This document shows, in pieces, positions 16,301 through 62,947 of a stretch of 64,000 nt of DNA (the first letter of the stretch is position 1; each line of letters begins with the position of its first letter). Below the pieces are notes generated by a model. The model was given only the letters and a program-made list of their open reading frames with translations. It was not told where the DNA came from and ran no database searches. The DNA is from a virus. Where the stretch lies: positions 16,271 through 80,270 of the IMG/VR virus record IMGVR_UViG_3300033143_001281; one strand, written 5' to 3'. The translations under genes were made by a program, and so were the position numbers.

Positions 16301-17629
16301 GGAGACATGCATGAAGTATGGGGTTCCATGAGTTCTAAAGGAGAATTTGGTGATAATCATAGTATTACAGGTGATAGATCTTTTGCTTTAGGTGATGGTA
16401 ATACTGCATCTGGTATTAATTCAGTTGCTTCAGGTAATATAACTACTGCATCAAATTTTGCATCAGTTGCATTTGGATATGATACTACAGCTAGTGGGGC
16501 AACTTCTATGGCTATAGGAGCATTAACAACAGCCTCTGGATCTAATTCATTTGCAGCTAATGGAAATTCAAGAGCAACTGGTCAAGATTCATCATCTTTT
16601 GGTCAAGAAACTTTAGCATCTGGTAATCAGTCCTTTTCTATAGGGTATAAGACAACAGCAAGTGGTGATTCCGCATTTTGTGGAGGTGGTGAAGGTTCTT
16701 CTGCTACTAATACAAACTCTTTTGCTTTTGGTGCAGATGTAGATGTTACGGCTGCACACAGTGCTGGTTTTGGTAGAACACATGATATTTCTGGTGTAGA
16801 ACATTTAGTAGGTGGTTTATCTAATACTATTAGTGGGGGTGCCAATTTAGTTGGTGGATCAATAAATACATTAGCAGGTTCACCTGAAGGTTTACTTATG
16901 TGTGGTGCTAGTAATTCTAATTTAAGTGGTGCTGGTGATTATAGTTTAATAGTAGGTCAATCTAATCAATGTCAATTTGGTGATTGGAGTTTTACTGGTG
17001 GTAAAGATTCAGACAACTTTAGTAATTTTGGTATTGCATATGGTTCTGGTGCTACTGCAAGTAAAGCAAATACAAATTTTGCTTTTGGGGAAGGTGTTAC
17101 AACACCAACTAATGCAACAGCAGCAAATGATGCTAATCAATTTGTGGTTGGTAAATATAATAGTTATAGTGATGGTAGAATACATAGATTTTCAGTAGGT
17201 AATGGTACAAGTGATCTTAGCAGATTCACTGCATTTTGTGTAGATAATTCAAGTAGAGTTGGTATCAAAGATCCTACGCCATCATATGAATTAGATGTAA
17301 CAGGAACAATTAGAGCAACTGGTAACGTTATAGCATTTTCTGATGAAAGAGTTAAAGAAAATATTAAAACAATTGATTCAGCATTAGATAAAGTAAATAA
17401 TTTAAGAGGTGTTGAGTTTAATAAAATAGGTGAAGAAAAAAAGTCTATTGGTGTTATAGCCCAAGAAATAGAAAAGATACTTCCAGAAGTAGTTGAAACA
17501 GATGATAAAGGAATGAAATCAGTTGCTTATGGAAATATTGTAGGTGTCCTTATAGAAGCTGTTAAAGAACAACAAGCACAAATAAATCAACTTACAGATA
17601 TAGTAGAAGAATTAACTAAGAGAGTTTAA
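13358..17629 (+). CDS. Tail fibre/spike protein 2 with YadA-head-like repeats and C-terminal peptidase S74 intramolecular chaperone
   Basis: 1423 aa with ~14-aa ASGxxSxAxG repeats (~16360-16760) and a C-terminal FSDERVKENI...GVIAQE...VAYGNIVGVLIEAVKE followed by a coiled coil. Confidence 0.88.
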   Translation: MAIKFLNSQSITGSLTVSSISNASSDTDKFLVSDNGIIKYRTGAQVLADIGAGTGDGSVTSVGLGSLDGISGSIANQTTTPSISLTNTDKGSAQNIFKNVAVSGQGTIVADSNNDTITLVGTGVSITTNATTDTITFSASNNYLTSATFNTSDGVLTLNRQGLSAVTVDLDGRYVTSSGVTSVATTFPVLGGTITSTGTISVKTPESGDWWNGGVPVVGTDGVMEIGKYIDFHATDTATSDFDVRLTATTGSLDVSGDIVIGGGDITLTGTGRIQGVDTVSAGTDAANKTYVDNAVSGFVDGSGTANDVAMWSDSDTLTDAPIAISGNNATFAGTVYIPSKLEHTGDSDTFLNFSDNTITLTAGNSSTIFSGNGNVTFPGDISIAGGDITSNGIQIISNSASSNHLKIGDISVDDSIQQIYLDTWGATQIYLDDNETDIKSDTVKFSGGIQTSAPTTYLGLTSTNLLTERTLAQTKTDLGIITTVQTANQNRIAVSNINGPVVSIDANTSAVSSSSSNLATGAQIQTAIDTAITGVLKYQGTWNASSNSPTLTSGSGTPGYYYIVSTAGSTNLDGITDWAVGDWAVFSDLATDAWQKIDNTQVGNVTGSGASGKVAFWNSSSNITSNSAFTYDGNNLAVGGSMTWSGGSSTESNLAYDRSITSFGDSGTSTVTLTIGRQDGNTLSTSFNVPQGTVTGTGSSGRVTYWNSSTGVTSNSAFTFTTNNGGRLQANNVILPNDGNYLGFDTSGNARTVATLDSSNNIEISNAALQSGSNTNIYGGDNTIFYVGGSEELRINNVGAIGIAGTNYGTSGQVLTSSGSGSNPTWSNPSTGSNNYVSSVSFNTSDGILTLNRNGLSALTVDLDGRYNPTIGTDTDINTSGYSIIDQINMTDGVITSTGARNLLNVHIEDTRAAEKTPNDYQDKALSLDFTDEFGSLGSWWSGITMKGWADNYQAWQLISGSDTSADNVLYFRTGIGTTWGDMHEVWGSMSSKGEFGDNHSITGDRSFALGDGNTASGINSVASGNITTASNFASVAFGYDTTASGATSMAIGALTTASGSNSFAANGNSRATGQDSSSFGQETLASGNQSFSIGYKTTASGDSAFCGGGEGSSATNTNSFAFGADVDVTAAHSAGFGRTHDISGVEHLVGGLSNTISGGANLVGGSINTLAGSPEGLLMCGASNSNLSGAGDYSLIVGQSNQCQFGDWSFTGGKDSDNFSNFGIAYGSGATASKANTNFAFGEGVTTPTNATAANDANQFVVGKYNSYSDGRIHRFSVGNGTSDLSRFTAFCVDNSSRVGIKDPTPSYELDVTGTIRATGNVIAFSDERVKENIKTIDSALDKVNNLRGVEFNKIGEEKKSIGVIAQEIEKILPEVVETDDKGMKSVAYGNIVGVLIEAVKEQQAQINQLTDIVEELTKRV

Positions 17630-42902: not shown

Positions 42903-45900
42903 ATGGAGGATCAGTCTAACAAACCTTTAGCAAACACCATAGCTAATAATCAAAGAACTTCTAGTGTTATTCCACCAGGAGAATTTAATTTTATACCTAT
43001 AGAGGAAATGTTTGAAACACCAGAAACAGATCTGGCAAACGTTATTGCAACAGATCCTGGTGCTATAGCTCAAGTAGATAGGTATAAAGCAGACATAGAT
43101 AAATATGGTATACCTGCAATGGCAAGTTTAGGTACGGTTAGTCCATCTTTAGCAACAGGTAAATATAATCCAGTTGCTCAACAAAATCCCTCACAAGCTG
43201 CTTATCAAGAAGTTAAAAATATATTAACTGCTAAAAAAGACGGTCCCGGTGGTCAACGTGTTGCACCCAGATATGCAAGTATTAGACAAAGCAATTTCTT
43301 AAGATACTATGAACATCCAGAATTTGCTGATTTAGGTTTTACACCATATGCAAATATGGAAGAGTTCTATAATGCTAATTCTACAATATGGGATGATATG
43401 AGTAGAATGAGTGGTCAATTTGCAAGTCTTGCTGGATCAGGTTTTAATAGTGTATATAGATCTTATGGTGATATGTTTGGTGACGGAAGTTATTTATCAC
43501 AACCAGATTTAGAATCAGCTTTTGAATTTGAAGATGCAATGGCCATTGGTAATTCTAGTAGAGGTGGTGCATTAGGTTTTACAAATAATCTTTTATTAAA
43601 TAGTGCATATACATTTGGTATTATTGGATCTATTGCAGTAGAAGAATTAATATTAGCAGGTGCTGCAGCAGCACAAGGTTTTCTTAATCCAGCATCTGAT
43701 GCATTATTAGCAAGTAGATCAGTTGCAAACGTCAAACGTGCAGGTGATGCTATTAGTGGTTTATTTGATATGAAAAAAATGGCAGATGCTACACGTAATG
43801 CAATGAAAACATTAAGTGAGATAGATACTGCTAGAGATTTTTGGGCTGCAACACAAGGTACAAGAAAAGTTTTAGGTCAAGCCTTTACACCTAATACAAT
43901 GTATGCTTTAAAGAATTTTAAGAGTACAAAAAATGCAACTCAAAATGCTGTTAACTTAGCAAAAATGAAAGCTGGTTTTGGTGGCTTTTATAGAGATTTT
44001 AGAGCTGTCAATTTAGCTTTAGCTGAAAGTAAACTAGAAGGTGGTATGGTTTACAATGAGCTTATAAGAGAAGGTGTGAATATGGCACAAGCCAAAAGTG
44101 GTGTAACTGTAACTCCTGAAGAATTTGCTAGTATACAATCAAAAGCATCAGAGGGTGCGTTTTATACAACTATGGCAAATGCACCTATTATATATGCCAG
44201 TAACTGGTTTGTTTTAGGAAATGCCATGGGCGGATTCAATAGAAGCCTGGGTAGAGTTTTTGGAGAAACTTTTGAAAAAGGATTGAATGGTAGACTTTTT
44301 AAAGGTAAAGGAGTAAAAGATGCAGCAACGGGAAAAGTAAAAAATGTTTTTAAAGATGCTGGTACAGGTCTAGGAGGCTGGTGGACAAAAGTCAGAGCGG
44401 GTGGAGTAAAGGGTAATACCGGCAGGGCATTAGCAGCTAGTGCTAGATATTTTGCTGCAAACATTGCAGAAGGTATACAAGAAGTTGCACAAGAAGCTGT
44501 TTCAGCAGGAACTAAAGGTTACTATACTGCCCTATTAGATGATCCGTTGGCAGGTGGTGTAGCATTAAGAAATCAATATATTGCTTCTGGAATGTCTAGC
44601 CAGTTTAGTGGTCAAGGAGCAGAAACTTTTTTATCTGGTTTTTTAATGGGTGGTATTGTACAAGGACCACAGAAATTATTTTTTCAAGGTATACCTGCTT
44701 TATATCAAAGAATAAGTGATCCTAAAGCTTATAAAGAGTATCAAGAAATTAAAGATAAGTATGTTAAAGATTTAGTCACTGTGCATAATGAAGCATGGAA
44801 CGCACAGGCTGATGATCCAGGATCAGTGTTTGATCCTCAAAAATTAAATTTCTTTTTTCAAAAACAGGCTGCTGCTGAAATGAAAAAGAATGTATTTAAT
44901 CAAGATAGATTTGGATTTCAAGATGAAAAAGATGGAGCTAAGTTTCATCAGATGTATACTATTTTTAGAACTGGCACATCAGAACTGTTTAAAAATCAAT
45001 TGAGAGATTATTTAAAAATGACTGATGCAGAATTAGCACAGGCGTTTCCATCTAGTAAAGCTGATGTAAAGAGTGGAAAGATAAGATCAAGATTAGAAAA
45101 ATTTATTACACAAATAGATAAGGCAGAAGCTGATTACATTAGAAGAAAAGATGATAATAAAAATCCTTTTGATCCAAGCCAGTTTAATAAAGAGACAGAA
45201 AAAAGACAGTATATACAAGAAGTTTTAAAAAGTCAAGCATGGGAGCATGCTAATTACTTGTATATGTTTACTGAAAATGGATTTCAACGTGCTCTAGAAA
45301 GAGCTAATAGTATATATACTGAATTAGCTAATGATCCTTTGTTTGATGGTATGGCTGCTAGTGATGTGACTGTATTATTAGATCCTGATTCTATAAGTAA
45401 TGAATTATTTTTACTATCAAAAGATATATTAGTTTTAGATGATTCAACAGAACAAGGTAAGAAAGATAAAAAAAGATTAGAAGGTAAATTAGAAAGACTA
45501 AAAGAGATTCAAAAAGTTTTATCTGATAAAAATCTACTTAACAATGATGGTACTTTTGATAAAAGAAAACTGGGTAGCAAACTTTTACCTGTGTTTGAAA
45601 AGTACATAAAGTATTTAGCAAATAGCAAAAATACATTTGCTGATAAGTCTAAAATAAAAGAAGCACTAAAAAAAATGATAGATTATGGTGCACTTAAAGG
45701 TAGAGCAAGAGTATATGATAAAGCAATTGAGTACTTAGCTAATCCAGAAAGATTTAATGAGATTGTTAATAGACAAATAGAAGTTAATAAAAATATATAT
45801 AGAAGTTTATCTTCTAATTTTGAAAAACAAATAAAAAAATATTTAAATGTTGCAGAGGCCAATGAGCTAATGAATCAACTTTTTAAAAGAGGTTATGTTG

Positions 45901-48900
45901 GTGATCCAGAAAATGTAAAAGGTTTTTTACAAACTGGAGATGTAAGATATTTAAATGCAATGACTTTTTACAACGAACAAGGTCAAATTGATAAAAAGGT
46001 TGATAAAGTTAAGTATGATGAAATACAAAGATTACTTGATGTCTATAGGAACAATCAAGAAAAAACTGAAGAGTCAGAACAATCTCCTAAAGAAGAAAAT
46101 CAAAAGGAGGATATTACACAGGCAAAAACAGCACAAGATCAAGTTTTAGATGATGCATCTATAGATGTTATATTACCTGAAACAAATAATACAAGAATGC
46201 TAAATGAGCTTTTAAAAAGACAGTATTCTAAGTATTCTGCTACACAAACAGTTTTAGGAGAAAACGTATTGACCTTTGAAGAGTGGAGAAATGCTGAGGG
46301 TGCAATATGGCAAAACACATTTAATGCTTTAAAAAAATTATGGGCATCTGGTAAACTACCAGTTTTAGATGCACAAGGTAATGCAGCTTACGTAAATGTA
46401 ACAGAAGATCAATTACTAAATGAACTAGGTTTTGATGCATGGTTAAAGTCTAGAGAAGTAAGAGAAAATGATTTAGTAAGTGAAATTTTACAATCAGCTA
46501 ATGTTTCTTTGGATGAAATAATTGCACCTACACAGAAACAAACAACTAAAGAAGATATAACTAAAGGAAAAAATAATGTTGATATATATAAAGAAGGTGC
46601 ACGTGTTAACGTTATTAAAGTTACAACTATAGATGAAAATGGAAAACCTGTTGCATTTTTTAAACTAGTAGATCCAAAGGGTAATGATTTATCAGCAGAC
46701 TTGCTTGGTTTGATAGATAGCAAATATGAAGGTACATATCCCACATCAAAAGAAGCTGTACAAGCACAAGAAGCTTTAGAAAAACAAGCACCCGATAATG
46801 CACCTTTTAAATTTGATAATGAAGAATTAAATCAAGGAATGCTTGTTTATAGAAATGGTAAGGAGTATGTTGTAATAAGTACACCTAGATCTATTTCAGG
46901 TGGTAAGTTGCGTTTAAGAATTAATGATGGAAGTAATAAGATAACAGTTATAAATAGGGGAGAGTTTGCCGGAAGATTTACTAAACAAGAAATCAAATAT
47001 GATTTTGATCCTACTAATGCAAGAGTAAATATTCAAAAAATAAATCAAATATATCCTCATGCTAATACTGTTGATGGTCAAAGAAATTATACTGAGGCTT
47101 CTAAAAGATTAGATTTGATATTACAAATCTTAGATGAAACAGATTTAAAAAATTTAAATTTAGTTATAGAAGCAGATCCGAAAGGTGGTGTAGATCAGGG
47201 TCAGTTTACTATGGAAGGTAAAAACCCAAATAAATATGTTAAAGTAAAAACATCTGCATATAGAATAGGTTTAGCAGCAGGAAGTCAAGAAACACAGAAA
47301 AGAATAAATGATGCATTGCTTAAGAATGGTATAAAACTTTCAGATAATCCAAATGGTATTTTTGCTTATATACCAAATGATGTATTTGAAATGATAGATG
47401 CAGAAGGAAATCCTGTAGAAAATCTTAGCACAATAACTCCTGATCTTGCTAATAGTACATTGTTTGTTAGCAAAGCACTTAGAGATAGTTTAACAAAACA
47501 AGAAATATTAAATTTAGCAAGAAGTAATTTTGCTCTTAATAAGTTAATTACTATTGAAGCAACAAATGCACTTGCTAAATCTGAAGGTGCAATAGCTTTT
47601 GTGCCTGTAGATAAATTAGATTTTAACTTTTCACTTTTAGTTTCTGGAGGTAATGTTGTTTATGATAATAGTTCAGTTAGATCTTTGTCTTCATTAAAAT
47701 ATCAACATGCTGATGAAAATGGCAACTATTTAATATATGATCTTAAAAAACTAAAAGGTGGTAAGGTAACAGAGAGCACTATTACTAATTTGGAAGGTAA
47801 AGAAGCTAGAGAACTAGAAGCTAAGGTTGAGGCTGGTCTTGAAGCGTCTGGACAAAATGGAATATTAGAAGCAGCTAGAGATAGATATATGGCTGCAGTT
47901 TTGTTACCTAATGGAGCATATAGATTAGTTCCTTTGAAAGCAGGTACTATGACAGCAGAAATGCGTGCTGAGTTAGCTGTAAAACTTATTGAGCGTGCAG
48001 AGTTAACAAAAAAAGAAAATTTAGACAAGAAGGGCAAAGAAAAAAGTTTATCATACAACTATAAATATAATGATAATCTAAGTGAAGGATTGTTTATTTC
48101 TACTATACCGGGTTATAAAATATCATTACAAGTAGATCCATGGGGAAAGATACAAATGCAGCTTTATGATAAAAATCTAGGTAAGCAAGTGGGTAAAACA
48201 ATTAGCGTTGAAGTTAAAGATATAGACTTGCTTAAACTTCAAGATGATCCTTCTCAAGCTGTAACACTAATGCAAGAGTTGGTTACCAAATTTAATAGTG
48301 ATGAAGATATTAAAGCAACCGAAGTAAAACTAACAAATAAAAATTTTAGAACAAGTTTTCCTGATGCAGCAACTGTTAATGATATAATTAATAAAACAAC
48401 TACTAATGTAGTAGGACAAGTCATAGATACTTTTCAAGCCCAAGTATTTTCTTCTTCGGATGTTATACAAGCAATGGTTGATTTAGAAATGACAACAGTA
48501 GCTTCTGAAAGTCAAACTGATCCTTTACTACAAGAGCAAGAAGAAATACAAGATGTTTTGTCTTTAGAGTCTTATAGTGAAGAAGAGTTTAAAGATTTAG
48601 AAAATAATGGTTTTGAAGATATATCAAGAAAACAATTAGAAGTAATAGTAGATAAACTCACACAACCTGTACCAGCAGCATTAACTGAAAGAGAGAAAGA
48701 AGTCTATTCTTATAGGTCTGATATGATTGATTCAATGGAAGCAATCAAAAGAGAAAAAGAAAATCTTAATCAGGATAGCTCAGACCAGCCTATTAAATCT
48801 AGCACGGATGGAAGAAGTGCTGGTGTAAAACAAATAATATCTATCTATGTTGGAGGACAATTATTTTTTAATATAAATGCTTCAGGCTTTGAAATAGCAG

Positions 48901-51900
48901 AAGCTTTTAGTGCTAATGGGGTAACGTTACAGGAAGCTAAAGCCGCAATACCTGGTTTAGATGGAAAATTGAAAGCTTGGTTTCAAAGAGGTATTGATTA
49001 TTTAGAAGGTGATATCAGTGAGCTTGAAAGTCTAAAACAAAAACTTGAAGCACTAAAATCTGAATTAGTAAAAGATATATCTCCAAAAAATAGACGTAAA
49101 GTTCTTAGAGAAAATGAAGAATATCAAAAACTTTTAAAACAAGTTAAAGATATTGAACAAAAAGGTGCTAACAAGATACTTTCACCAGAGCAGTTATCTC
49201 AATCTGATGAAACAGATATCAATGTATTTACTAAATGGGCAGAAGAAAATCTACCAAGTTATATCAATATAGCTGATATAAATACTCTTGGTAACAACAT
49301 GAAAGCTGGTGGTGTACGTGTTGGTGCTTTTGTTTTAGCACTAGATCAACTAGCATCTGGACTAAACCTACAAGGTACAATATATACATCAGCTACTAGT
49401 CCTTATAAATATCATGAAGCTTTTCATGGTGTGTTTAGAATGTTATTAACTGATGTAGAAATTAATCAGTATATAAATATTGCTAGAAAAGAGGTGAGAG
49501 CAAAACTTAGATCTGAGGGTAAAAGTTTTGAAGCTGAACTAAAGAAATTTAGAAATTCTGCTAATACATATACTAATATGTCAGAATCAGAATTAATAAG
49601 AGAATATTATGAAGAGTATTTAGCTGATGAGTTTGAAAAATTTAAGACAGATCCAACTAATACTAAAACAGATTCTTCAGTTAAGTCTTTATTTACTAGA
49701 ATATTGGACTGGATTAAATCTATATTTAGTGTTAAATCACAGAATGAACTTCAAACATTATTTCAAAATATTGATTCTGGTAAATTTAGAAATGCTGAAA
49801 TTCAAAGAAATCAATTTACTATTTACCCGGAAAACGGGTATATATTAGAAGCAAATGCTATTATACCTTATGCATCAGAGCAAGTAGATAATAAGGTTGG
49901 GTATATTTATTTAGACAGTGATATAGCAGATCCTATGTTACGAAACATAAGTGCTATGTATTTATCTAGAACTTCTGAGCTTAAAGAAGCATATAATCCC
50001 GGAAAAGTTTTAGATGAGTTAATAGATGATTTTGCATGGTTATATAGTCCAGAAAATCCTATAAATGCAGAAAGAAGTGAAATGCAGTTAGATAAGCTTA
50101 GACAAATTGAAAACGCTTTTGATAATTACTCACAGGAAATAAAGGATCAAGTTGTTAAGTTTTTAACTAGTATTAGTGATAATGTATCTGGAGAAAATCT
50201 TGACGCAGCAGAATTTGAAGACTCAAAAGAGTTAAGAAAAACAACAGAGTATGACAAAGATGCTTCTATGATAGGAGGATTTAGATCTTTAAGTTCTTCT
50301 ATAAGACAGTATATTGCTACAACAACATTAGAAGAAACGGATTACTTTGGGAATGTTGAACTTACAGATGGAGAACCATTAATTATAGCTGTTGATTTTA
50401 TTAATGCATACAATGGATTATTAAAAGCAGTCAAGAGTAAATCAGATCCAAAAGCTATATTACAAAGCATGTATTTCTTTGGTCAGGATAATGCTCATGC
50501 AGGTGCTGTTGTAAGAAGAATATTAAAGGATGTTGGTATAACTGAAGAGCAGTTGCTTTCAGAGAAAACTCTTCCAAAACAAATAGCTAATCCATTATTA
50601 TTTCAATCTATATTAAAAGGTTTTGAAAACTTTAGAGTAGATTATTTATTTAATGAGCGTGATGATAAGGGTAATGTTATTATATACTCTGCAGCTGAAA
50701 GAGATGATAGAAATTCTCAGTTGGATAATTGGAAACAAGCATATATATACAAAAGAAAACAACTTGTATCTAATAGAGATAGAAAAAGAAGATTGAATAT
50801 ATTATTAAAAGATATATCAGATGATATAAGAATAACTAATAAATCTATTACAAACAAAAAGCTCAAAGAAGATGCACAAAGATATTCTCAAGAGTTATTT
50901 GATTTAGTTGGTATAAAATTGAGCCCTTTATATTTACAATTTAATATGGTCTATAACAGATCTAAGTTAACTGTTAAACAAAAAGCATTATTAAATTTTG
51001 ATAAGGATGCCAACCCATTGACTGAAGATCTTGATGGTAAGGCTTATAAGGTTAATTCAATAGACATGCTTAATCTTTTAACTAAAGCTGATAGTGATAT
51101 ATTTGAGAGAGGTGATGAAGGTATGGATAGTAGGTTAAAAGCAATGGCTATTGGTAATAGCTCTTTTGATGAGACTGTTGGTGCAACTGTATTTAAAAAC
51201 CCAAATGGCGATTTAGTATATGCACATCAGATGCCTACATATCACTTGAGAAAAGTTGCTGAACTTAATGATCCAAGTAAGTTAGAAGCTCTTATTACTT
51301 CTGATCCTTATTTGGCTAATAACTTTTTGTTAAACAGCAGCGCTTTTAAAAATTTATCAAAAGAACGCAAACTAAAAGTATTAAGAATTGCAGGTACTAA
51401 AATTTCTGATTTAATAAAAGCAAATCAAGAACAAGATGAAAGTTTAGGTAAGACTAAAGATAGTTCATCTTATGGTGATTATACACCACAAGAGTTTACT
51501 CTTAATCTAATTAATAATTATACAGCTTTATTAAATAATAGAAGTTACAAGGTTACTTCTGTTGATTCATTAGATAAAAATGGTAATGAGGTATTAACAG
51601 CATTAGCTCCAGTTTTAATTAGAGTTATGGAAGCATCTAATACAGGAGATATGATAAATCTACCTGTTATTAAGACAGTTGATTTTAATGGTAAAGAATC
51701 TAAAATAACTGAAGAGGTTGTAGATATTTACATTGATCAAATAAGATCTGAGTTTCAAAGGATTGTTAGAGAAAGCAATGAAAAAACTAAGACAAAAGAA
51801 CTTATAGAAGGTTATAATACACCGGGTGGTAGAGCATTTCAGTTTTTTAATAGTGGTTTGTTAATTGGATCACCAGCTTTAAAAAAGCAATTGGTTGAAG

Positions 51901-54900
51901 CAGCAATAAATGCTGGTAAGACAAATACAAAATTAACTTTAGATGAAGCAATAGAGGGATTAGTTATACAAGTAGCTCCAACACAACAAACTAGTGAGGT
52001 AATAAATATATATGCAGGAACAAATGAAAATGCTGAGTTAAGTAATTTTGCAAAAAGACCTTTTGCTAGTGAGCTTATAGATGGGCAGTCTAAATATGGT
52101 AATTTTATTTTTAATACTGTACTCCAAGTTATTTTAATGAAGAAGGATTGCTTACAAAAGAAGGGGAAAAACTGATTGCTGATTTAAGTAAAGCTACTGG
52201 AGCACAAGCTAAATCAATAGGTAGAAAAATAAAGGGGTTAGATGTAAAAAGATGGGATAGTCTATCAGAAGGAATTATGAAAGGTTTAATTAAAGAATCT
52301 TTTGAACAAAACCCTAAAGCTCTTGAGAAACTATTAGCTACAGGTAATGCTACATTAACTCATACACAAGATAAGACTAAGTACCGTGAATTGTTTCCTA
52401 AAATATTAATGGAAGTAAGACAAGAGTTAGGTGGTTCTCAACCAACACAACAAGCTAGTGAGGTTGTAGGAATGACAGCTTTAAGAAAATCTGTTGTTGA
52501 TAATTTAGAAAAAGAGTTTAGTGAATTTAGAAAAGAAATAAATGAACTTAATATATCTGATAAAATATCTAAGCAAATAGCAGAAGGACCAACAGTTGCA
52601 GCAGGTGTAAGTAGAAGAGAACTTACTAAATCTCAGGAACAATTAAATTTAGTTACTAATAATCCTAATCATAATTTAAAACAAGTATTTTTTAATGATT
52701 GGATAAATACAATGGCTATAAATGAAATATTACTTGGAGATCAAGCTATTTCACTATCTAGCCCAGTAGATAAAATTAAAAGAGCTAAAATGCAAAATGC
52801 TGCTTACTTTAGTGCAGCATCTGCTATTTCCGCTCCTGAACAAGGTGTACATCATCCTGTTAAAGATATAAGTTTGGTAGCTTTAGAAGAGCCTGTTAGT
52901 CCTGACGGTATTGACTTGGCGGATGCACAAATGTATATTACCACAAAAGCATTTAGATATATGTGGTTTGGTTTTGGAAAGCTCACTGATGCACAAGCTG
53001 AATTACTTGATTTAATAGATGAGGGTCAAGAAATAACATCTTATTCTGTTTTTGGTGACAAAGAAAACACCCAGGCATACGCTAAAATGCAAGCATTATT
53101 AAATTCAAAAAAGCTTATATATGGTGATGGTAGTACATTCTTAAAAATGTCTGCATTTACTTTAACTAAAAACTTTACTTCTATTCAGAACCCAGAAACT
53201 AAAAAGTGGGAACCAAGACCTAATAGAGTACAGTTACATAACTTAAGAGAAAAGTTAGAAGCAATAGAAAATGAGAAAGGTAATCAGACACTAGGGATTG
53301 CTGCACCATTGAGTGCAATTAAAATGAAAAAGCAAAAAGTAAATGAGCTAACAGATTTAGATAATTCTAATCCATTTACTAATGGCTATACAAATTTAGA
53401 TGCTTCATTTATGGGTCTGCAGCAATTAAATGTTTCAAATAAATTGGAACAAGTTGATCCAACACAAATCAAACAAATTATAACATCTGAACAAGATCCA
53501 AAGACACATGTTCCTGGATTAATGATGAACGTTGGAGATATAATTACAGAATATAATAAAGCAATAAGTAAGAGAGTTACAATTAAATTCCAAAACAAAA
53601 AGAACTTAACCTTCTCTTATGAAACCGCAATGGATGAATTTGAGATGTCCAAAGATGCTGGTTCTATTACTCCAAAATTGTCTGCATATTTAAATTTTGC
53701 AATAAACGGATTACAAGCATCTCAGTCTAGTAGTCAACTATTAGAGTTCTTTTCTATGGACAATGGTGTTCAAGAGTATAACTTAAATAATCCTATAACT
53801 TCTAAAAAGTTTGAACAATTATTTCTAAGTTATTTTAGTAAAGGTGTTTTCTCTGAAAGAATACCAGGTTTAGCATTGACTTTAGTATCTGATTTTGGTA
53901 ATCAAGTATATAGAAGAGTATACGAAGTTGAGATAGTAGATGGAAAAACTATACCGGTAAGATCTGAGATTATAAGAGAAAAAAGTTGGAAAGGAAATAG
54001 TAATGATATACAAGACTTAAATACCTTAACTCCAGAATCTGAAGGTTTGTCTGAAGGTATTGTAGTTTTAGATAGACTTAGACACGGTCTTAAAGAATAT
54101 AAAGATATTACTGATCCAGATTCATATACAGGACAAAGATTTACAGAGATGATGATGCCAAGTCATCATAAATCTGTGATGGATATGATAGAAAATAAAC
54201 CTAATGCAAAAATGCCTGATGTAATATCTAAAATGTTTGCTATTAGAATACCTTCACAGGATAATCATTCAGCAATGAATGTAAAGTGGGTTGATTTTTT
54301 ACCTGTTTATTATGGATCATCAGCTATGTTTGCAAGAGAGTTGGTAGAGATATCAGGTGCTGATTTTGATATTGATAAAGTATTTGCACAAATAAAAGAT
54401 TTTTACGTTGAGTCAGGTGAGTTTAAAGAATATGGAAGAGCCGTTGGCATGGCTGAAAAGCATAAAGACTATCTTAGATATATTACTAGAGAAGTACAAA
54501 AGCCTGGTAATACATATTATGAAGCATATCAAACTTATATTAGAAATCAAAATGCAAGTGAAATAGATAATAGTGTTGAGACAGATGTTTTAACTGATCA
54601 GGGTTTAATTTCACAAGAAGGATTAATAGCATTAGAAATGTTAGGTTTGCCTAAAACTTTAGAAGAATATAATAATTACTATAAGAAATTTCAAGGAGAA
54701 CCATATGAAGCGCCTTATAATAATGACATACTAGATTATAGATATGCTTTATTAGGTAATGATAATGTAACATCTGGTGATAATCCTATATCATATACCC
54801 CAGCTACAGTAAATATAATCAAAGATGTTTTATCAGAACTATCGGGACAGTCTAAAGTATTCAAGGATAGAATGGAAGAAGACAGTGTAGAAGTTGATAA

Positions 54901-57166
54901 TATATTAGGAAAAATAAAAGCTTTCAAAGCAAATAAGGGAGCATCAATTGGTGCTGTAGTATTACCTAACTTATATTTAAGTTTATTAACTGAGTATGGT
55001 ATTACCTTAAAAAATCCCATACGAATAAATGGTAAAGATTACTTTGACTATAAAGAAACATTAGATGACAATGGTAATAGAAAACAAGATACAATATCTG
55101 CTTTGATTACTATGGCAACAGATAATGCAAAAGATAGGTTGTTATCTAAACTAGGACTTAATAGACACTCATTGGGTATTGTTGCTAATTTAACAGCTTT
55201 AGGTATAAATCTAAAAACATCAACTCTTTTAGTCAATCACCCTACTATACAAAAATTATATAATGAAGCTCTAAATAAATCAGAGAAAACTGATCCAGGA
55301 ATTAAAAAGTTGGTGCAAGATTTTATAGAGTCTACTACAGACGTCAATGAGTTATTAGAAGTTACTGATGAGTTATTATTAGATAATATAAATCAACCAC
55401 AAAATATTTCTAAACAAGATAATCTTAGTGTATTATCAGTATTTTTTGAGGCAATAAAATTAAAAGACTTTACTGGAAAAATGGGTGCAGCTACTAGCTT
55501 AACAAAAGGTATTGGTAGAAACATGGCAGAAGTAAAAGAAAAATATAAAAAGATTGCTGAGCTTACAGATAAAGATGCTCCAATGGATCTAAATGCAATT
55601 TATAAAAGCAATACTTGGTACAGTCAATATAACAGAATGTTTAATCAACTTGTAGAACAACTGCTTCCTGCTGTAGTTCTAAGATCAAATGCATCTTTTA
55701 CTAGTATATTAGATCGTGCATTAGAAACTATGAATACAGAAAGCAGACAGTTTACATCTGAAGTAGAAGAAGACGTATCATTAGATTTACTTTCATATTT
55801 GACAATAAAAGCATACCAAAAAAATATGCTAGATAATGGAACACTTGATCAAAAAAGTTTTAGCAATGATTTAATATATCCTTCTGAATATAATATTACT
55901 GATGTTATAGCTGATCTTAAAGAAATACAATCTTCATTGGGTCAAGAAAATTTATTTTTAGATGATTATGTAATACCTGAAAAATCTAGTGATGTAGGAA
56001 ATTCAACAGGTCTTAATTTAGCAAATGCAAATACTTTTAGAAATTTAAGTAAACAACAAAAAATAGATCTTCAAAATGATTTTTCTAAATTATTTGGATC
56101 ATTAACAACAAGGGGTGCTGCTAAAACACTAATTAACTATATGATGGTGAAAGATGGATTCCAACTTAGATATGGTTCATTGTTGTCATCTATTAGTCCT
56201 TTTGTTTTAAATGATTATTTATCTACTATTAATTCTGTTGAGTCAGCGCTCAAAGGTGCATCTACTTTTGAATCTGTTTTTGGGATGAGTCAAGATAACT
56301 TAGCTGAAGAGTTTAGAGATAATTATCTAAGGTCTAATATAAGTGGTAGACTTCTTAAAACTTATAATCAAAGTCCTATTACTAGAGGGTTTGGTAATAA
56401 AAAAGAAAAAATAATTTTTAATAGACAAGAGGGTATATTAAAGATGAATAATGTAACCATGCAGGTTCCAAAAATGTTTATAAGAGTTCAAACTATAGAA
56501 GGTGCAACCATAACTTTAATGCTTGATAGAGAAGCAACAAAAGATAAAAAACTAGTATATAATGTTATTGAAACATATGGTTCTAATAGTCAAACTGGTA
56601 TAGGTTTTATTTTTGGTGATAGACCCACCCATAGAGAAGTAAGAAATTATGTTAGAAATAAAGGTAATGATGTAAATCAAGATCCTGATGCAAGCATAAG
56701 CTTTGATGCTATGGATGGTGCAAAAGCTGTACAAGCTGAGATATTACAATCAGAAAATATTAATATTACTGCTGATGAAAATTCTATCATGGTTAAGTTA
56801 GATCCAGAAGCACAAGAAACTGATATAGCAAACACAAACTTACTACTTGAACAGCTTGGTTTAAATGAGGTAGCTAAAGACCAAGATGAGTTAGAAGCAA
56901 ATGTTATTGAAGATGTTGATACTTCTTTACCTGATGTTGACGAAGGAGAAGCACAATTAAGTCTCAATTTTGAACAAGAGTTGGATGAACAATATCCTGA
57001 AATAACTGAGTTTTGGGATACAGTAATATCACCAGATAAAAAAGCTTTAGAAAATTTAAGAGCAAATAATATTGTATCTTTGGAAGACTTGATTGAAGAA
57101 TATAATAGAGGAACTTACGCTAGCATAGCAGAGTTTATAGATCAAATAAAAAATTGTAACTTATAA
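42903..57166 (+). CDS. Giant virion RNA polymerase polyprotein (hydrophobic N-region, HExxH zincin, NADAR insert, two-barrel RNAP); split by an indel at ~52120
   Basis: HEAFH at 49413-49427 followed by EEYLADEF. RIPSQ at ~54245 and GADFDIDK (DFDID 54362-54376) match the phi14:2 gp66-type RNAP. ORFs 42903-52175 and 52148-57166 overlap inside one NADAR domain. Confidence 0.82.
51978..52464 (+). repeat. 23-bp direct repeats CCAACACAACAA(A/G)CTAGTGAGGT flanking a NADAR domain
   Basis: Copies at 51978-52000 and 52442-52464, 22/23 identical, encoding PTQQTSEV and PTQQASEV. Confidence 0.92.
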
Positions 57167-57169
57167 GAT

Positions 57170-60100
57170 ATGGCACGTTGTCCTAATAAAAATACAGCAG
57201 AGTATAAAGCTCTTAAAGAAGTTTTTAAAACAGAAATTATTACAAATAATGTAATTAATAACTGGCAAGATCTTAATAATGTAGATACATTTCCTAGTGT
57301 TATACAAGCACAAGATATGTTAAGGAACCAAAGACTTGCAATGAACTTAAAAAAAAGACAATTTGGTGAATCTTTATTAAATAATTTAAGAAGAGAAAGA
57401 ATAGGTCACAGCTACAAAAACAAATTTTATATTAATAATTCTAATCCTAATACAGGTTTATTTGATGAGTTATTTTTAAGTAAAAACATTAAGAGGCTTA
57501 ATAGATATCTTGATGTTAATAATATTCCTTCAAATAGAATTACATTAGAAAGAACAGCTAAAACATATAGATTAACTGTTAATGATGATTTGTTTACAAC
57601 AAACGATATGCTTGAGTCTTCTAGATCTTGGGATACACCAAGAGCAAGAAGTATTGTAAAACATCTTAGGAGAATGTTTCCTCAAGTAAATATAGAGATG
57701 CTTTCTGTTGCAGAAGCAAAAGAGATGTATAAGTCAATGCCTGAATGGAAAAAGTCAAACACCCCTTTTGATAAAGTTAATTCTTTTTATGTTGATGGAG
57801 TTGCTTATTTAATTAAAGGAAGAGTAACAGATGAAATTGCTATTGAAGAAATGTTACATCCATTTGTTGATGCTATAAAAGCAGATAATGAAGATTTGTT
57901 TAACTCATTACTTAAAGAAGCAAATAGTAATTTCCCAGAGATGGTACAAGAAATTGCTGATTCATATAATTTAGATAGAAGGTTTAGTCAACTTGATAGA
58001 GATTTAGAGATTGTTACTCAAGCTTTATCAAGACATTTTAATAATCAATATGAAAAAGAAGGTGGACCAAGCCGAGGATTTTTAAATAAAATAAAAGAGG
58101 TCATTCAATGGTTTGCAAATATCATTAAAAATTTTAATGAGTATTTAACAGGAAGACCATTAGACGTATCATCCATTAATGATACAGCAACATTAACTGA
58201 TATTGCAAAACTTTTAAACACAGAAGGTATACAATTTAAACTTGAGTCACGAGTTAATGGCAAGATTAGATATAGTTTATCTCCTGAAAAAAAGAAAGCG
58301 CTTGACATACAGCGTAATTCTGCAAATGAAATTCAGAAGCAAGTATTAAATAAACTGTTTAATGTTGTAGAGTCAAGCAAAGAAGAGTTTGATTCATTAT
58401 CAGCAAATCTAAATGATACTAGTAATCCTAGCATTGTTATTTTAAATGAAAAGGATCATACATATTATAATATTACTACAGGAGAAGTTTACACTTCCGT
58501 GACTACTGCTATTAAAGGGAGATTGAAAAATCAAGAAGATGTTCAACTTAATTTGGATGTTGGTAATGATGTAGATGCAATTCTTGATTCAGTTATTGCT
58601 GGTGAATCTCCTGCAGAAGTACAATCAAAACTCAGTATTTTGACACCAGAAATGGCTGAGCAAGTATATGCACAGTTAGAAACTACATTAGATATGATTA
58701 TGCCTGAAGGTTCTATAGCATTATCACAGGTTGTTTTATTTGATGAGAACACTAGTTTAGCAGGAACAGCAGACTTACTTATTATTGATAGAAATGGTTT
58801 TATTAGAATTGTTGATTTAAAAACTAGTAAGAACTCAATTAAATCTAGATATGTAACTGATAAAATTACTGGTAGAAGTGAATTTAAAAAGTATGATAAG
58901 AGTTGGGATATTGTACCATCAGATCAAGATGTCATAAAAGATTTACAAGACAATAACGTTAAAAAAGAAAACGGTAAAAAATATTCTAAAGAACAAATTG
59001 AAAATAGAAAGAAAGAGTTATCTCCTTTATTGTATGAAAAAGCAGGTGTAGAAAAACTATCTACTAGAGAACAACACAACCTTCAAGTAAATTTATATAG
59101 AAGGATGGTTGAGAATATGGGCTATAAAGTCTTTCAAGGAGAAGGGGCTTCCACCACTATTCATTTTGTTGCTGATATAACAGGAAAAGGTAAAGATCAA
59201 AAATTTAATGGTAATATTAAACCTGACGGTAGAATAGATCATCCGCCTTCAGAAAATTTAATTTATGTAAATAAACTAATACCTGAAAACTTAGATAACA
59301 TTGAAAAGGATAAACTTGAAAGTGCAGTTAAAAATGCTGAAGATCAAATACTAGATGCAGAACAATTAGCTGTAGACTCTGAGCAAGAAGCAGATACCGT
59401 TGATGCACAACAGTATCCAGAGTACAATACTATTTTAGCAGCACTTGAAAACTATAGATTAGGTTTAGTTGATAGAAGAAAAGCACTAGATCAAGTTAAA
59501 AAAAGTATTTACAGTGATAGAACAAAAAAAGAGCAACGTGAGCAAATTGCAAGTCATCTAGCATATATTGGTATTGCAATAAGTGAAGGACCTATAGCAC
59601 AATCAAAAGCATATTCTTCTTTATTACGTGATGCATTAAAGGAAATTAGAAAGTTTTCTGCATATGTACAAGATCCTTCAAACTTTGGTAAGACAGAGTA
59701 CATAACATATGTCTTAAATTTTGATAGGTTTGCAAAAACATTTGTTGGATTATACTCTATTGAGCAGTCTAATGAATTAAATGCAACTCAACGTTCTTTA
59801 GTTTTATCTTTACAGTTAGAACTTAATAAGCTAACTGGTGGTGACAAAAAAGGAGAAGGTATAATTAATCAAGCAATTTCTGATTATGTAAAAGAAACTA
59901 TCCGAACAAGATCTAGTAATGAATTTGGAGTAGATGGTAGTGCATTTACTAAAGAAGATCTTGATATGGTTATGGAAATGGCAAGAGATATAAACGGTAC
60001 AGAGCTACAAACTAGAGATTTAGATACTTCACCGGATGTTCTTTTAGGAGTTATGGCAAAAATATACAAGGCCAAAAAACAAGAACTATTGGACAGAGTT

Positions 60101-62947
60101 GCTGAAACTAAAGCAAGAGTTACAGTAGCTGCAGAAAAACTATTAAAACTTTCACCAACAAACGATAAAGAAAAGATTTATGACTTTATGCATGAGTCAG
60201 ATGGTAGATATGTAAAACCAATAGGTCAACAGTACTATGATCTTGAAGAATCTTTGGGTGCTGTATTAACAGATAATGATGGCCAGCCATATTATTACAG
60301 AGACATATCAAATTTAGATAATGCATCACAAGAAGATATAGACTATAATATAGATTTAGCAAATAAAAAAAGAGCATACTCTGATTTTATGGCGGGTGAA
60401 ATGAAAAATAGTGCTAATGAACTTGTAGATGGTGAATACCATAGATATACTGATGAATTTAAACAGGCTAGAAATAAGTTTGAATATTGGTCACCTGGTT
60501 CTGATAAAAGCCGTAGAGGCAGATGGAATAGAAAAGCTGGTAATAGTGATAAAGACTATGCTTTATATGAAGCTAAGTATTATGATATGAAACCTGTTAC
60601 TTTTGCAGAAAGGAATGCCCTAGGTGATGCCACAGGAGTTATAGTTAAAGATCAGATTTTCAGAGCAGTTAAGCCTGAATTTAGAGAGGTCCGACTTACT
60701 ACAAGAAGTGGTCAGGACATGGCAAGTGCTAAATACAGATCTATCATGAACCCTACAAATGCATTAGAACAAGCACAAAAAGAGTTTTATGAAATGTATA
60801 TAGATGTTTATGAAAACTACCTATTAAAGAAATTACCTGTAGGTGAATTAACTAAGATGGTTGGTAAAACACCACTAGTTAAAAATAATTTAATAGATGA
60901 TTTAAAAAATAAACCTACTATAGTATCTAAGTTATATGCAAAAACAATTGGTAGTAGTGCATGGAACATGTTCAAGAAAACATCATCTCAGAGAGGTGTT
61001 GTAACAGATGAAAATGGAAACTTAATTAGTTCATTGCCTATATACTATACGGGAAGACCAAGAATAGATGGAGAAATAGAAGTTGTAGATAAGCAGATAA
61101 CAGCACTACAAGATAAAAAAAGAAAGGGTTTAATTGGTCCAGATGCATATGAAAAGGAAATAGCCATATTAAATGGTAAGATGGAAAGACTAAGATCACA
61201 ACCTAGTACGGGTCAAATAAGCAGAGATTTAGGAAGTAGCTTATTAAAGTTTGCTGCAATGGCTGAAAACTATGAAGTGATGGGCACAATTGAAGATACT
61301 CTTAATGCATTTTTAAATGTTATTGAGAGAAGAGAATATCAACCAGCTGATACAAGTATTGAAACAGGAACATTTATAGACAATGCATTTAAGAAAAGAG
61401 GTATTATAAAAGGTAAAGATTCTAATGTATTAAAAAGAGCTAAGAAATGGATGTCTATGATATACTATCAAGATGATATGATGACAAAAGGTGCTGCTGA
61501 TAAAATAGCAGATGGTCTTATTCAGTTGTCTTCTTTATCTTATGTTGCTTTTAACCCATTTGGTAACTTCAATAACTATGTTATAGGTAGAATTAATAAC
61601 AATATTGAAATGCTAGGTGGTAGATTTTATAGCAGAAAAGCATATCAAAGAGCTACTTATGAATTTAATAAACGTGCTATACCAGATATAGTTCAAAGAA
61701 CATCATATGTTGTAGGAGACCTTGGTGATGTTTTGACTTTGGGATTAGTACCTGGTTTACAAAAGTCTACTTATGATCCACAGAAACCTAATAGTAAGTA
61801 TGAAGCATTTGTAGATTTATTTAGAATGATGGATAGTATGTCTGATATACGTGAACAATCCTCATCTACATCAGAAGGTAAAAGTTGGTTTGAAAAAGCT
61901 ACTGAATGGGGATATGTATTACAAGATGCAGCAGAATATAATGTACAAACAAAAGTTGGTATGGCTTTACTAATGGATACATTTATAAAGAATACAGAAA
62001 CTAATGAGGTTATGTCTTTATATGATGCATTTGATTATGATGCAAATACACATAAAAATGTATTGAAAGATGGCTTTACTATGATTGTAGATAAGAATGG
62101 TAATAACTTGCGTGAATACTCTGATGAATTTAGATATGAACTTAGAAATCAAATACGTGAGGTCAACAAACAAATTCATGGTAACTATGCAAAAGAAGAT
62201 AGAGTTGTAATGCAAAGTACTACTATTGGTAAGTTAGCATTTCAGTTTCATAAGTGGGTGGCTCCAGCTATAAGAGCAAGATATCAAAGAGAATACTTTG
62301 ACCAAAACCTTGGTTGGATGGAAGGCCGTTATATATCTGCTTGGAAGTTTTTAGCATATACAAAAGAACAAATAGTAAAAGGAAACATGGAGTTTTCTAA
62401 GTATAATAAAGGTTTTTTAGAGTCATACGGTTACACAGGCAAAGGTGGTAATATAGATCAAAGAGCAACTAATAAACTTTTTGGGTTTTATAGAACAATG
62501 GGTGAAATAGGAATTATATTATCTACTCTTGTTTTAAGTGAAATATTAGGATCTTTACTTGCAGGTGAAGATGATGATAGTGATACAATGAAGAGATTTA
62601 AAAATGTTGCAAGATATCAAGCTGATAGATCTTTTAAAGAACTTATAATGTTCTTACCAGTACCAGGAGGATTTGAACAACAATATCAAATGTTTAAATC
62701 ACCAATTGCTGCAACAAGAACTTTAGGTGAATTAGGTGAAGCACTTTCTCTCACAATAAGAACTCCTATGGCATATTTGTATTATTCTGATGATGAGTTC
62801 AGATCAAATTCAAGTTTTGTTTACCAACAAAAACCAAGAAAAGGAGAACTTAAAGTTTATAAAAACTGGAAAGATGTGTTACCTATTATTTATTCTATAC
62901 AAAAATGGGATGCATATCTGAAATTGAATAATTTCTATATCAAATAA
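57170..62947 (+). CDS. Giant virion/ejection protein with zincin-like and PD-(D/E)xK nuclease domains and a C-terminal hydrophobic segment
   Basis: 1925 aa with EEMLHPF (HExxH variant), AGTADLLIID...IVDLKTS...QVNLY and a C-terminal GIILSTLVLSEILGSLLAG. Confidence 0.7.
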   Translation: MARCPNKNTAEYKALKEVFKTEIITNNVINNWQDLNNVDTFPSVIQAQDMLRNQRLAMNLKKRQFGESLLNNLRRERIGHSYKNKFYINNSNPNTGLFDELFLSKNIKRLNRYLDVNNIPSNRITLERTAKTYRLTVNDDLFTTNDMLESSRSWDTPRARSIVKHLRRMFPQVNIEMLSVAEAKEMYKSMPEWKKSNTPFDKVNSFYVDGVAYLIKGRVTDEIAIEEMLHPFVDAIKADNEDLFNSLLKEANSNFPEMVQEIADSYNLDRRFSQLDRDLEIVTQALSRHFNNQYEKEGGPSRGFLNKIKEVIQWFANIIKNFNEYLTGRPLDVSSINDTATLTDIAKLLNTEGIQFKLESRVNGKIRYSLSPEKKKALDIQRNSANEIQKQVLNKLFNVVESSKEEFDSLSANLNDTSNPSIVILNEKDHTYYNITTGEVYTSVTTAIKGRLKNQEDVQLNLDVGNDVDAILDSVIAGESPAEVQSKLSILTPEMAEQVYAQLETTLDMIMPEGSIALSQVVLFDENTSLAGTADLLIIDRNGFIRIVDLKTSKNSIKSRYVTDKITGRSEFKKYDKSWDIVPSDQDVIKDLQDNNVKKENGKKYSKEQIENRKKELSPLLYEKAGVEKLSTREQHNLQVNLYRRMVENMGYKVFQGEGASTTIHFVADITGKGKDQKFNGNIKPDGRIDHPPSENLIYVNKLIPENLDNIEKDKLESAVKNAEDQILDAEQLAVDSEQEADTVDAQQYPEYNTILAALENYRLGLVDRRKALDQVKKSIYSDRTKKEQREQIASHLAYIGIAISEGPIAQSKAYSSLLRDALKEIRKFSAYVQDPSNFGKTEYITYVLNFDRFAKTFVGLYSIEQSNELNATQRSLVLSLQLELNKLTGGDKKGEGIINQAISDYVKETIRTRSSNEFGVDGSAFTKEDLDMVMEMARDINGTELQTRDLDTSPDVLLGVMAKIYKAKKQELLDRVAETKARVTVAAEKLLKLSPTNDKEKIYDFMHESDGRYVKPIGQQYYDLEESLGAVLTDNDGQPYYYRDISNLDNASQEDIDYNIDLANKKRAYSDFMAGEMKNSANELVDGEYHRYTDEFKQARNKFEYWSPGSDKSRRGRWNRKAGNSDKDYALYEAKYYDMKPVTFAERNALGDATGVIVKDQIFRAVKPEFREVRLTTRSGQDMASAKYRSIMNPTNALEQAQKEFYEMYIDVYENYLLKKLPVGELTKMVGKTPLVKNNLIDDLKNKPTIVSKLYAKTIGSSAWNMFKKTSSQRGVVTDENGNLISSLPIYYTGRPRIDGEIEVVDKQITALQDKKRKGLIGPDAYEKEIAILNGKMERLRSQPSTGQISRDLGSSLLKFAAMAENYEVMGTIEDTLNAFLNVIERREYQPADTSIETGTFIDNAFKKRGIIKGKDSNVLKRAKKWMSMIYYQDDMMTKGAADKIADGLIQLSSLSYVAFNPFGNFNNYVIGRINNNIEMLGGRFYSRKAYQRATYEFNKRAIPDIVQRTSYVVGDLGDVLTLGLVPGLQKSTYDPQKPNSKYEAFVDLFRMMDSMSDIREQSSSTSEGKSWFEKATEWGYVLQDAAEYNVQTKVGMALLMDTFIKNTETNEVMSLYDAFDYDANTHKNVLKDGFTMIVDKNGNNLREYSDEFRYELRNQIREVNKQIHGNYAKEDRVVMQSTTIGKLAFQFHKWVAPAIRARYQREYFDQNLGWMEGRYISAWKFLAYTKEQIVKGNMEFSKYNKGFLESYGYTGKGGNIDQRATNKLFGFYRTMGEIGIILSTLVLSEILGSLLAGEDDDSDTMKRFKNVARYQADRSFKELIMFLPVPGGFEQQYQMFKSPIAATRTLGELGEALSLTIRTPMAYLYYSDDEFRSNSSFVYQQKPRKGELKVYKNWKDVLPIIYSIQKWDAYLKLNNFYIK

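Follow-up and report, generated by a model that had tools for sequence, protein, structure and literature searches.

Short in-frame linkers conserved as DNA: probable joints for domain exchange in giant polymerase-type proteins of marine crAss-like phages

Introduction

Why should two nearly identical 23-bp direct repeats stand in the gene of a giant RNA polymerase-type protein, one on each side of a small enzyme domain? The question is raised by a 64,000-nucleotide stretch of viral DNA (positions 16,271 to 80,270 of the IMG/VR record IMGVR_UViG_3300033143_001281; called the window throughout). A reading of its letters made without database searches (the sequence-only reading) had proposed that the repeats encode a linker and serve as recombination sites, by which domain cassettes such as the enclosed NADAR domain are plugged into or excised from the polymerase. 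The comparison of viral and metagenomic contigs reported here suggests that the 23-mer is probably an in-frame inter-domain linker that is shared as DNA, and that recombination between linkers reshuffles the domains of giant polymerase-type polyvalent proteins in the marine crAss-like gene pool.

Results

The repeat pair

The two 23-mers, which will be called linker copies, differ in one base (22/23 identical):

51978-52000, plus strand: linker copy 1, CCAACACAACAAACTAGTGAGGT, encoding PTQQTSEV in the frame of the upstream open reading frame (ORF)
52442-52464, plus strand: linker copy 2, CCAACACAACAAGCTAGTGAGGT, encoding PTQQASEV in the frame of the downstream ORF

The repeats were thus found where the sequence-only reading had placed them, and all peptide strings quoted in it occur in the ORF translations. 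No third match was detected within the 64-kb window at up to three mismatches. The whole record, a viral contig of 80,270 bases with an estimated completeness of 70%, contains the same two 23-mers and no others, and 100 dinucleotide shuffles of the window yielded no match to the 23-mers. In the record, the absence of 34 nt between 52121 and 52122 (see below) puts the two copies out of frame with each other; the spacing from repeat to repeat is 464 nt there, whereas other samples contain an intact allele with a spacing of 498 nt (166 codons).

The linker occurs in many phages and joins unrelated modules

The exact 23-mer was found in 21 IMG/VR contigs. When 2.9 million viral contigs were searched with a degenerate pattern allowing any coding of PTQQ[TA]SEV (Ser as AGY), the number rose to 27; in the six additional contigs GAG to GAA was the sole change, all other codons being the same. 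All 27 IMG/VR matches sit in giant ORFs. In marine metagenomes the 23-mer, with the final GAG or GAA allowed, was present in 86 contigs, which brings the total to about 110 marine phage contigs, in which it flanks many domains other than NADAR.

The pooled set contained 116 occurrences with full flanks. Clustered by sequence, their flanks gave at least 71 left and 65 right contexts, which were combined in 82 ways; the PTQQ(T/A)SEV frame was open in 115 of the 116 occurrences. Flanks recurred with other partners; one left context, for example, preceded three different cassettes. In 22 pairs that share the right flank only, identity was 88-97% on the right and 98% in the linker, whereas on the left it dropped to the background of about 30%. 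The 14 pairs sharing only the left flank gave the mirror pattern, and in most of the one-flank pairs identity extended 0-6 nt past the linker edges. Linker copies also form arrays: of 77 distinct linker-to-linker spacings, 76 were divisible by three, with a median of 411 nt, approximately the size of one domain. Diverged copies with 1-5 mismatches were found to bound cassettes as well.

These data bear on the simplest alternative, that the repeats arose by chance, by faulty assembly or as the target-site duplication of a mobile insertion. A duplication would give one copy at empty sites and two at filled sites, and such alleles do exist (see below). The same sequence, however, bounds cassettes in about 146 contexts, the cassettes carry no mobility gene, and the same combinations turn up in independent data sets. 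Mis-assembly cannot be caused by linker copies with 1-5 mismatches, and the result with the shuffled sequences (0/100) argues against chance. We consider this alternative largely refuted and hardly credible.

Conservation at the level of DNA

The variation within the linker was tabulated for 146 non-redundant contexts with up to four mismatches. Of the 179 variant letters 162 were nonsynonymous and 17 synonymous, and the third codon positions were near-invariant apart from GAG/GAA. Because synonymous sites hardly vary while amino acids do, and selection on the peptide would leave the reverse pattern, the comparison indicates that the linker is conserved at the DNA level and not at the peptide level. 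Such a codon pattern points to repeated copying of the DNA or to its recognition. The conserved block reaches slightly beyond the 23-mer and can be written as [A/C]AA-23mer-TGAA (23-30 nt).

It could be argued that the linker is kept for its role as a peptide, whether it spaces the domains flexibly or is the place where a capsid or zincin protease cuts them free, and that recombination is incidental. The sequence has four open frames of which one is always used, the peptide is rich in P, T, Q, S and E, and the same ORF carries an HEAFH motif at amino acid (aa) 2171. Moreover, self-processing by metallopeptidase domains has been proposed for polyvalent proteins (PMC5512222). On the other hand, this explanation predicts synonymous variation, contrary to the 17 synonymous versus 162 nonsynonymous changes, and many orthologues have no linker at the site. 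A peptide role alone is insufficient since it cannot account for the codon pattern, and as a full explanation we regard it as improbable. A function as spacer or cleavage site may exist alongside exchange at the linkers.

The linker is not confined to close relatives. Five near-complete linker-bearing genomes encode crAss-type portal proteins with 76, 31, 29, 25 and 24% identity to the portal of the window, and contain 1-2 linkers each. The letters of the linker are identical between phages whose portals are 24-31% identical. The presence of the same linker in genomes with portals down to 24% identity indicates that the joint is common to phages across a very deep divergence.

Identical letters in such distant phages, the near-invariant synonymous positions next to varying amino acids, and the sharp edges of the conserved block would also be expected if the 23-30-mer were the recognition site of a dedicated sequence-specific enzyme (a recombinase, nuclease or homing-type enzyme) that moves cassettes in frame, like an integron within a coding gene. 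Several observations do not fit this scheme. The cassettes encode the domain alone, the 23-mer has by eye no clear dyad symmetry except for the internal ACTAGT, and gut relatives use a different short junction for NADAR (see below). No candidate enzyme turned up, and no systematic search for one was made. We regard a dedicated enzyme as an unlikely explanation.

Alleles at the homologous site

The site occupied by the cassette in the window could be followed among orthologues, and the loci (L numbers) fell into an allelic series:

No linker, conserved flanks joined directly: 15 loci
One linker, no cassette: L032/L033 (TQQTSEV) and L029/L031 (degenerate copy)
Two linkers, one cassette: L030 and L034 (different cassettes, no family) and the window (NADAR)
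Three linkers, two cassettes: L077 (A-C)
Four linkers, three cassettes: L127 (D-C-A)
Four linkers, at least three cassettes: L010 (upstream of the conserved downstream flank; its N-terminal 1300 aa had no match to the window)

Most of the forms anticipated for an exchange site by the sequence-only reading are present in this series: empty sites with one linker (L029, L031, L032 and L033), different domains between the repeats (L030 and L034 at this site, many domains elsewhere) and tandem arrays of two or three cassettes (L077, L127 and L010). Excised circles, which it had also mentioned, were not seen. In the close orthologues L077 and L127 cassettes A and C stand in opposite order. The allelic series and the breaks of homology at the linker edges support, at the level of pattern, the view that the PTQQ repeat is a linker bounding pluggable cassettes.

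The same linker-bounded NADAR, in intact form, was found at another site in L130, an orthologue of the polymerase part, where it lies near the C-terminus. Compared with the NADAR of the window, its ends next to the linkers are near-identical and its centre is far more diverged. A second cassette hot spot was noted near the polymerase C-terminus (L004, L015, L016, L022 and L130), equivalent to about 56500-56740 of the window or aa ~1450-1530 of the downstream ORF; in the window it holds no cassette.

The NADAR cassette and its 34-nt break

52001-52441, plus strand: NADAR cassette (YbiA-like, PF08719), by Pfam; broken in the record by a 34-nt deletion
52121-52122, plus strand: break point, where 34 nt, GAAGGAGCTTTTCAAGCAGCAAAACTTATAGCCG (encoding EGAFQAAKLIA, plus one base), are absent from the record, causing a change of frame

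The Pfam family NADAR (PF08719) matched the C-terminal half of the cassette with E 7.5e-10 and 39.7 bits, against a cut-off of 35.1; the intact cassette of L130 gave 51.2 bits. A profile of seven intact relatives (A5) matched PDB entry 8BAU, a NADAR structure with ADP-ribose, with E 1.3e-11, and YbiA (2B3W) with E 1.4e-10. An AlphaFold2 model was made of the L130 cassette, an intact relative and not the broken copy of the window, and had a pLDDT of 90.8; its top Foldseek matches were 2B3W (TM 0.74), 8BAU (0.73) and 8BAT. The L130 cassette also matched Phage_30_3 with E 8.7e-6, under the family cut-off. The identity of the enclosed domain, which the sequence-only reading had named from its motifs, was thereby established by Pfam for the C-terminal half in the window, and by profile and fold model for its intact relatives.

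The relatives that share the boundaries of the NADAR cassette are intact. At the position of the break they read FNTVEGAFQAQK, as in the N-terminus of a 2402-aa protein of the gut phage cr126_1. In the window FNTV is directly followed by PSYFNEEG in the other frame; with the 34 nt restored the sequence becomes FNTV-EGAFQAAKLIAA-PSYF, and 42903-57166 is fused into one ORF of 4765 aa. There is no microhomology at the edges of the missing piece.

The break was checked by placing contigs of four public sequencing runs on the region. A contig of run X15 contains the 34 nt between 52121 and 52122 and has otherwise no differences to the window. Runs X16 and X1 gave loose contig ends with the same letters as the 34-nt piece, and the deleted form was found in none of the four runs. 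The natural allele of the NADAR cassette is intact, and the loss of the 34 nt goes back either to faulty assembly or to a defective variant. A programmed frameshift or a functional split of the polymerase at ~52120 was ruled out, as the X15 contig and the X16 and X1 ends restore one ORF and no run contains the deleted form. An alternative genetic code is not needed, the break being a frame change without a reassigned stop.

Residues E88, K95 and D171 of the E. coli C7 NADAR have been shown by mutagenesis to catalyse guanine de-ADP-ribosylation (PMC11543638). The Glu/Lys pair equivalent to E88 and K95 is deleted from the cassette of the record. In the X15/X16/X1 allele EGAFQAAK (E-x6-K) is present; it is invariant among the relatives, and the intact allele also keeps the THTQD segment. 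The loss of the catalytic E...K motif and the split of the ORF indicate that the NADAR copy in the record is inactive. The 'repaired domain' envisaged by the sequence-only reading thus exists as an intact allele in other runs, whereas the copy in the record is broken.

Parts of the cassette (52001-52232) were 88% identical in DNA to MT774391 (L001:6001-6248), in the N-terminal DUF1768 domain of the 2402-aa protein of gut phage cr126_1. The cassette flanks showed no detectable similarity between the window and MT774391.

Two cassettes in one population

Run X16 contained a contig identical to 51630-52000, which after linker 1 continued with other letters, encoding KSENISSKGS. A second loose end of the same run reads ...EALADAYNSTQ ahead of linker 2. 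Both ends match the ends of the cassette of L098/L155, which has an EHAYQ hallmark and gave a NADAR match with E 3.6e-4, under the cut-off. The depth of X16 over the NADAR of the window was about half that over the flanks (per-contig figures, to be taken as a rough guide). Judging from these contigs, two NADAR-type cassettes seem to coexist at the site in the natural population. Exact searches for the left flank of the window plus the linker in metagenome contigs, and for the first 29 nt of the alternative cassette in viral contigs, gave no match. In run X15 a low-depth contig joins 52000, the end of linker 1, to 52439; it could stem from a site with no cassette, from linkers in tandem or from a different cassette.

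The carrier is a gp66-type RNA polymerase

The window is a block of structural and virion-protein genes of a divergent marine crAss-like phage, with a series of giant ORFs after the tail fibre gene:

128-2701: portal (ORF of the window)
4380-5768: major head protein (ORF of the window)
13358-17626: tail fibre (ORF of the window)
42903-52175, plus strand: N-terminal part of the polyprotein, 3090 codons (ORF list)
52148-57166, plus strand: C-terminal part of the polyprotein, 1672 codons, in frame -1 relative to the N-terminal part, with the catalytic region of the RNA polymerase
54362-54376, plus strand: DFDID, the catalytic motif that marks a gp66-type RNA polymerase, 640 codons beyond linker 2

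The first of the two polyprotein ORFs ends at a TGA because of the frameshift within the NADAR cassette. A profile (A2) made from aa 521-960 of the downstream ORF and 11 relatives matched PDB entry 6VR4, gp66 of phage phi14:2, with E 2.6e-17. The alignment spans gp66 residues 1317-1517, over RIPxQ...GxDFDIDK, and in A2 residues D219, F220, D221 and D223 of the aligned window segment, which make up DFDID except for its I, are invariant. The match was reached by this profile alone: phmmer searches of PDB with both ORF halves found nothing, and neither did a profile of 600 aa around the cassette site. The claim that the NADAR lies inside an RNA polymerase ORF was thus borne out by the gp66-type core, and with the 34 nt restored the 4765-aa ORF combines NADAR and polymerase core in one polypeptide.

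The cassette site, which may belong to the polymerase fold or separate it from an N-terminal extension, is located 640 aa upstream of DFDID, and both of its flanks are conserved among orthologues, which read through the site in a single frame of ~1600 aa. For the last 500 aa of the 42903-52175 ORF 17 relatives with 37-60% identity were found, and further ones among the metagenome loci. The downstream 500 aa, used as query in a pattern-based search for relatives, retrieved none. Since this region is conserved in the loci reached with the upstream query, the empty result reflects a failure of the peptide patterns.

Gp66 of phi14:2 is a virion-packaged RNA polymerase. By its homology to gp66 and the position of its gene after the structural genes, the giant protein would likewise be packaged and ejected with the DNA.

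Two further features of the region were recorded. The HEAFH motif (zincin-like; 49413-49427) lies in a part of the giant ORF without a Pfam family, and the next giant ORF (57170-62947, 1925 aa) matched the PHROG exonuclease family phrog_298 over aa 424-652 with E 2.1e-9.

What the cassettes encode

Among 59 different post-linker segments Pfam recognized NADAR (3), ART-PolyVal (2), Kinase-PolyVal, 2OG-Fe(II) oxygenase, DUF7831 and SprT-like domains; the majority belonged to no Pfam family. The most promiscuous module was the DUF7831 cassette (EVVSRYTN...; L117, L128, L133 and L156), found after the linker in four left contexts. Pfam searches of whole linker-bearing giant ORFs and of the L030 and L034 cassettes gave almost nothing. 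With cassettes C (L127) and A (L034) the ESM Atlas returned scores below 0.9, which are leads only, among them an ASCH-like hint for C (0.83).

In gut crAss-like phages (L050-L072, IMG/VR 3300045988, from the set to which the relatives of cr126_1 belong) NADAR is joined to at least four left contexts through another junction, GAACAA[C/T]CTTCAGAAACA, read as EQ(P/S)SET and located ~18 nt upstream of INIYAG.

The phage NADAR protein AdfN (T4 gp30.3) counters the DarTG1 defence (PMC11257639). By analogy, the intact NADAR of the cassette would be expected to remove ADP-ribose from DNA bases and to counter DarT-type defence.

Discussion

Unrelated modules are joined by the same ~23-30 nt, which suggests that modules are exchanged at the linkers. 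In such a process recombination between two linkers, located perhaps in co-infecting phages or perhaps at separate positions of a single gene, would add, delete, replace or re-order whole domains; the reading frame would survive, the linker being an integral number of codons. A single linker would act as a landing pad, two linkers would make deletion or replacement possible, and frequent exchange would keep the linkers identical. In the window the NADAR module would represent such a unit, held between two linkers 640 codons upstream of the polymerase active site. Judging from the compared sequences, the exchange probably proceeds by short-homology recombination, carried out by general functions of phage or host.

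Several points weigh against exchange at the linkers. The recombination events were not observed directly, and the evidence is comparative and comes from assembled contigs. The invariance of the third positions and the identity across distant phages may alternatively reflect reading of the sequence by an enzyme. Neither ERF nor RecT was found in the five near-complete linker-bearing genomes; AAA_24 (Sak4-like) was above the cut-off in three of the five, but it matched all 14 of 14 control genomes as well. The 15 orthologues that have no linker at the site show that polymerase function does not need it, and the window's own NADAR cassette is broken.

In a more elaborate version, the linker would be the attachment site of a dedicated in-frame cassette-exchange system, an integron within a protein served by a trans-acting enzyme, and the same linker as peptide would be the cut site that releases counter-defence enzymes from the ejected polyprotein. 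We think this combination quite unlikely.

Since one large polypeptide combines unrelated effector-type domains, the giant ORFs can be assigned to the polyvalent proteins. These were described, including forms like the N4 virion RNA polymerase, as giant, proposed virion-packaged proteins with many effector domains (Iyer, Burroughs, Anand, de Souza and Aravind 2017; PMC5512222). Their delivery with the DNA was predicted and 'recombinational variability' was raised as a possibility in the same paper. Cassettes found here match two of the families named after them, ART-PolyVal (PF18760) and Kinase-PolyVal (PF18762). No mention of a DNA-conserved in-frame linker was found there, the word 'linker' being absent from the main text of PMC5512222. 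A further difference lies in the carrier, here a gp66-type (two-barrel) polymerase from crAss-like phages, in which an allelic series exists at one orthologous site. Among the papers available to the literature search none described such DNA-conserved in-frame linkers.

Short motifs that border a constant part and exchangeable modules, with recombination swapping the module, are familiar from polymorphic toxins (VENN in CdiA, PxxxxDPxGL in Rhs proteins) and from the repeat-bounded cassettes of antigenic variation. Those systems exchange one C-terminal module, often from silent orphan copies, whereas the modules described here are internal, form multi-copy arrays, reside without exception in expressed giant ORFs and have the same 23-mer at both borders. 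In T-even tail-fibre adhesins, Tetart et al. reportedly found in 1998 that variable segments lie between short, conserved in-frame DNA motifs through which phages exchange them. There the segments of one homologous adhesin are shuffled; here the modules are unrelated enzyme folds.

With AdfN (PMC11257639) and the DarT1-associated NADAR antitoxins (PMC11543638) the cassette shares the domain family, the intact allele having EGAFQAAK and THTQD, and there is the weak match to Phage_30_3. AdfN is a free-standing early protein, whereas the NADAR described here forms part of a giant polymerase related to the virion-packaged one of phi14:2.

If exchange at the linkers is true, it would offer phages a concrete route for reassorting predicted counter-defence enzymes in the form of in-frame modules. 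The route would consist of a short DNA joint common to a gene pool whose core genes have diverged almost beyond recognition, and it agrees with the long-standing concept of 'linker sequences' between phage modules, here applied to protein domains. NADAR, of the family that reverses the ADP-ribosylation of DNA by DarT1, would be carried in a protein potentially able to act ahead of all phage gene expression. The roughly 60 linker-delimited modules catalogued here, most of them without a known family, are a source of candidate new anti-defence activities, and the linker itself could serve as a natural design rule for modular phage proteins made in laboratory strains.

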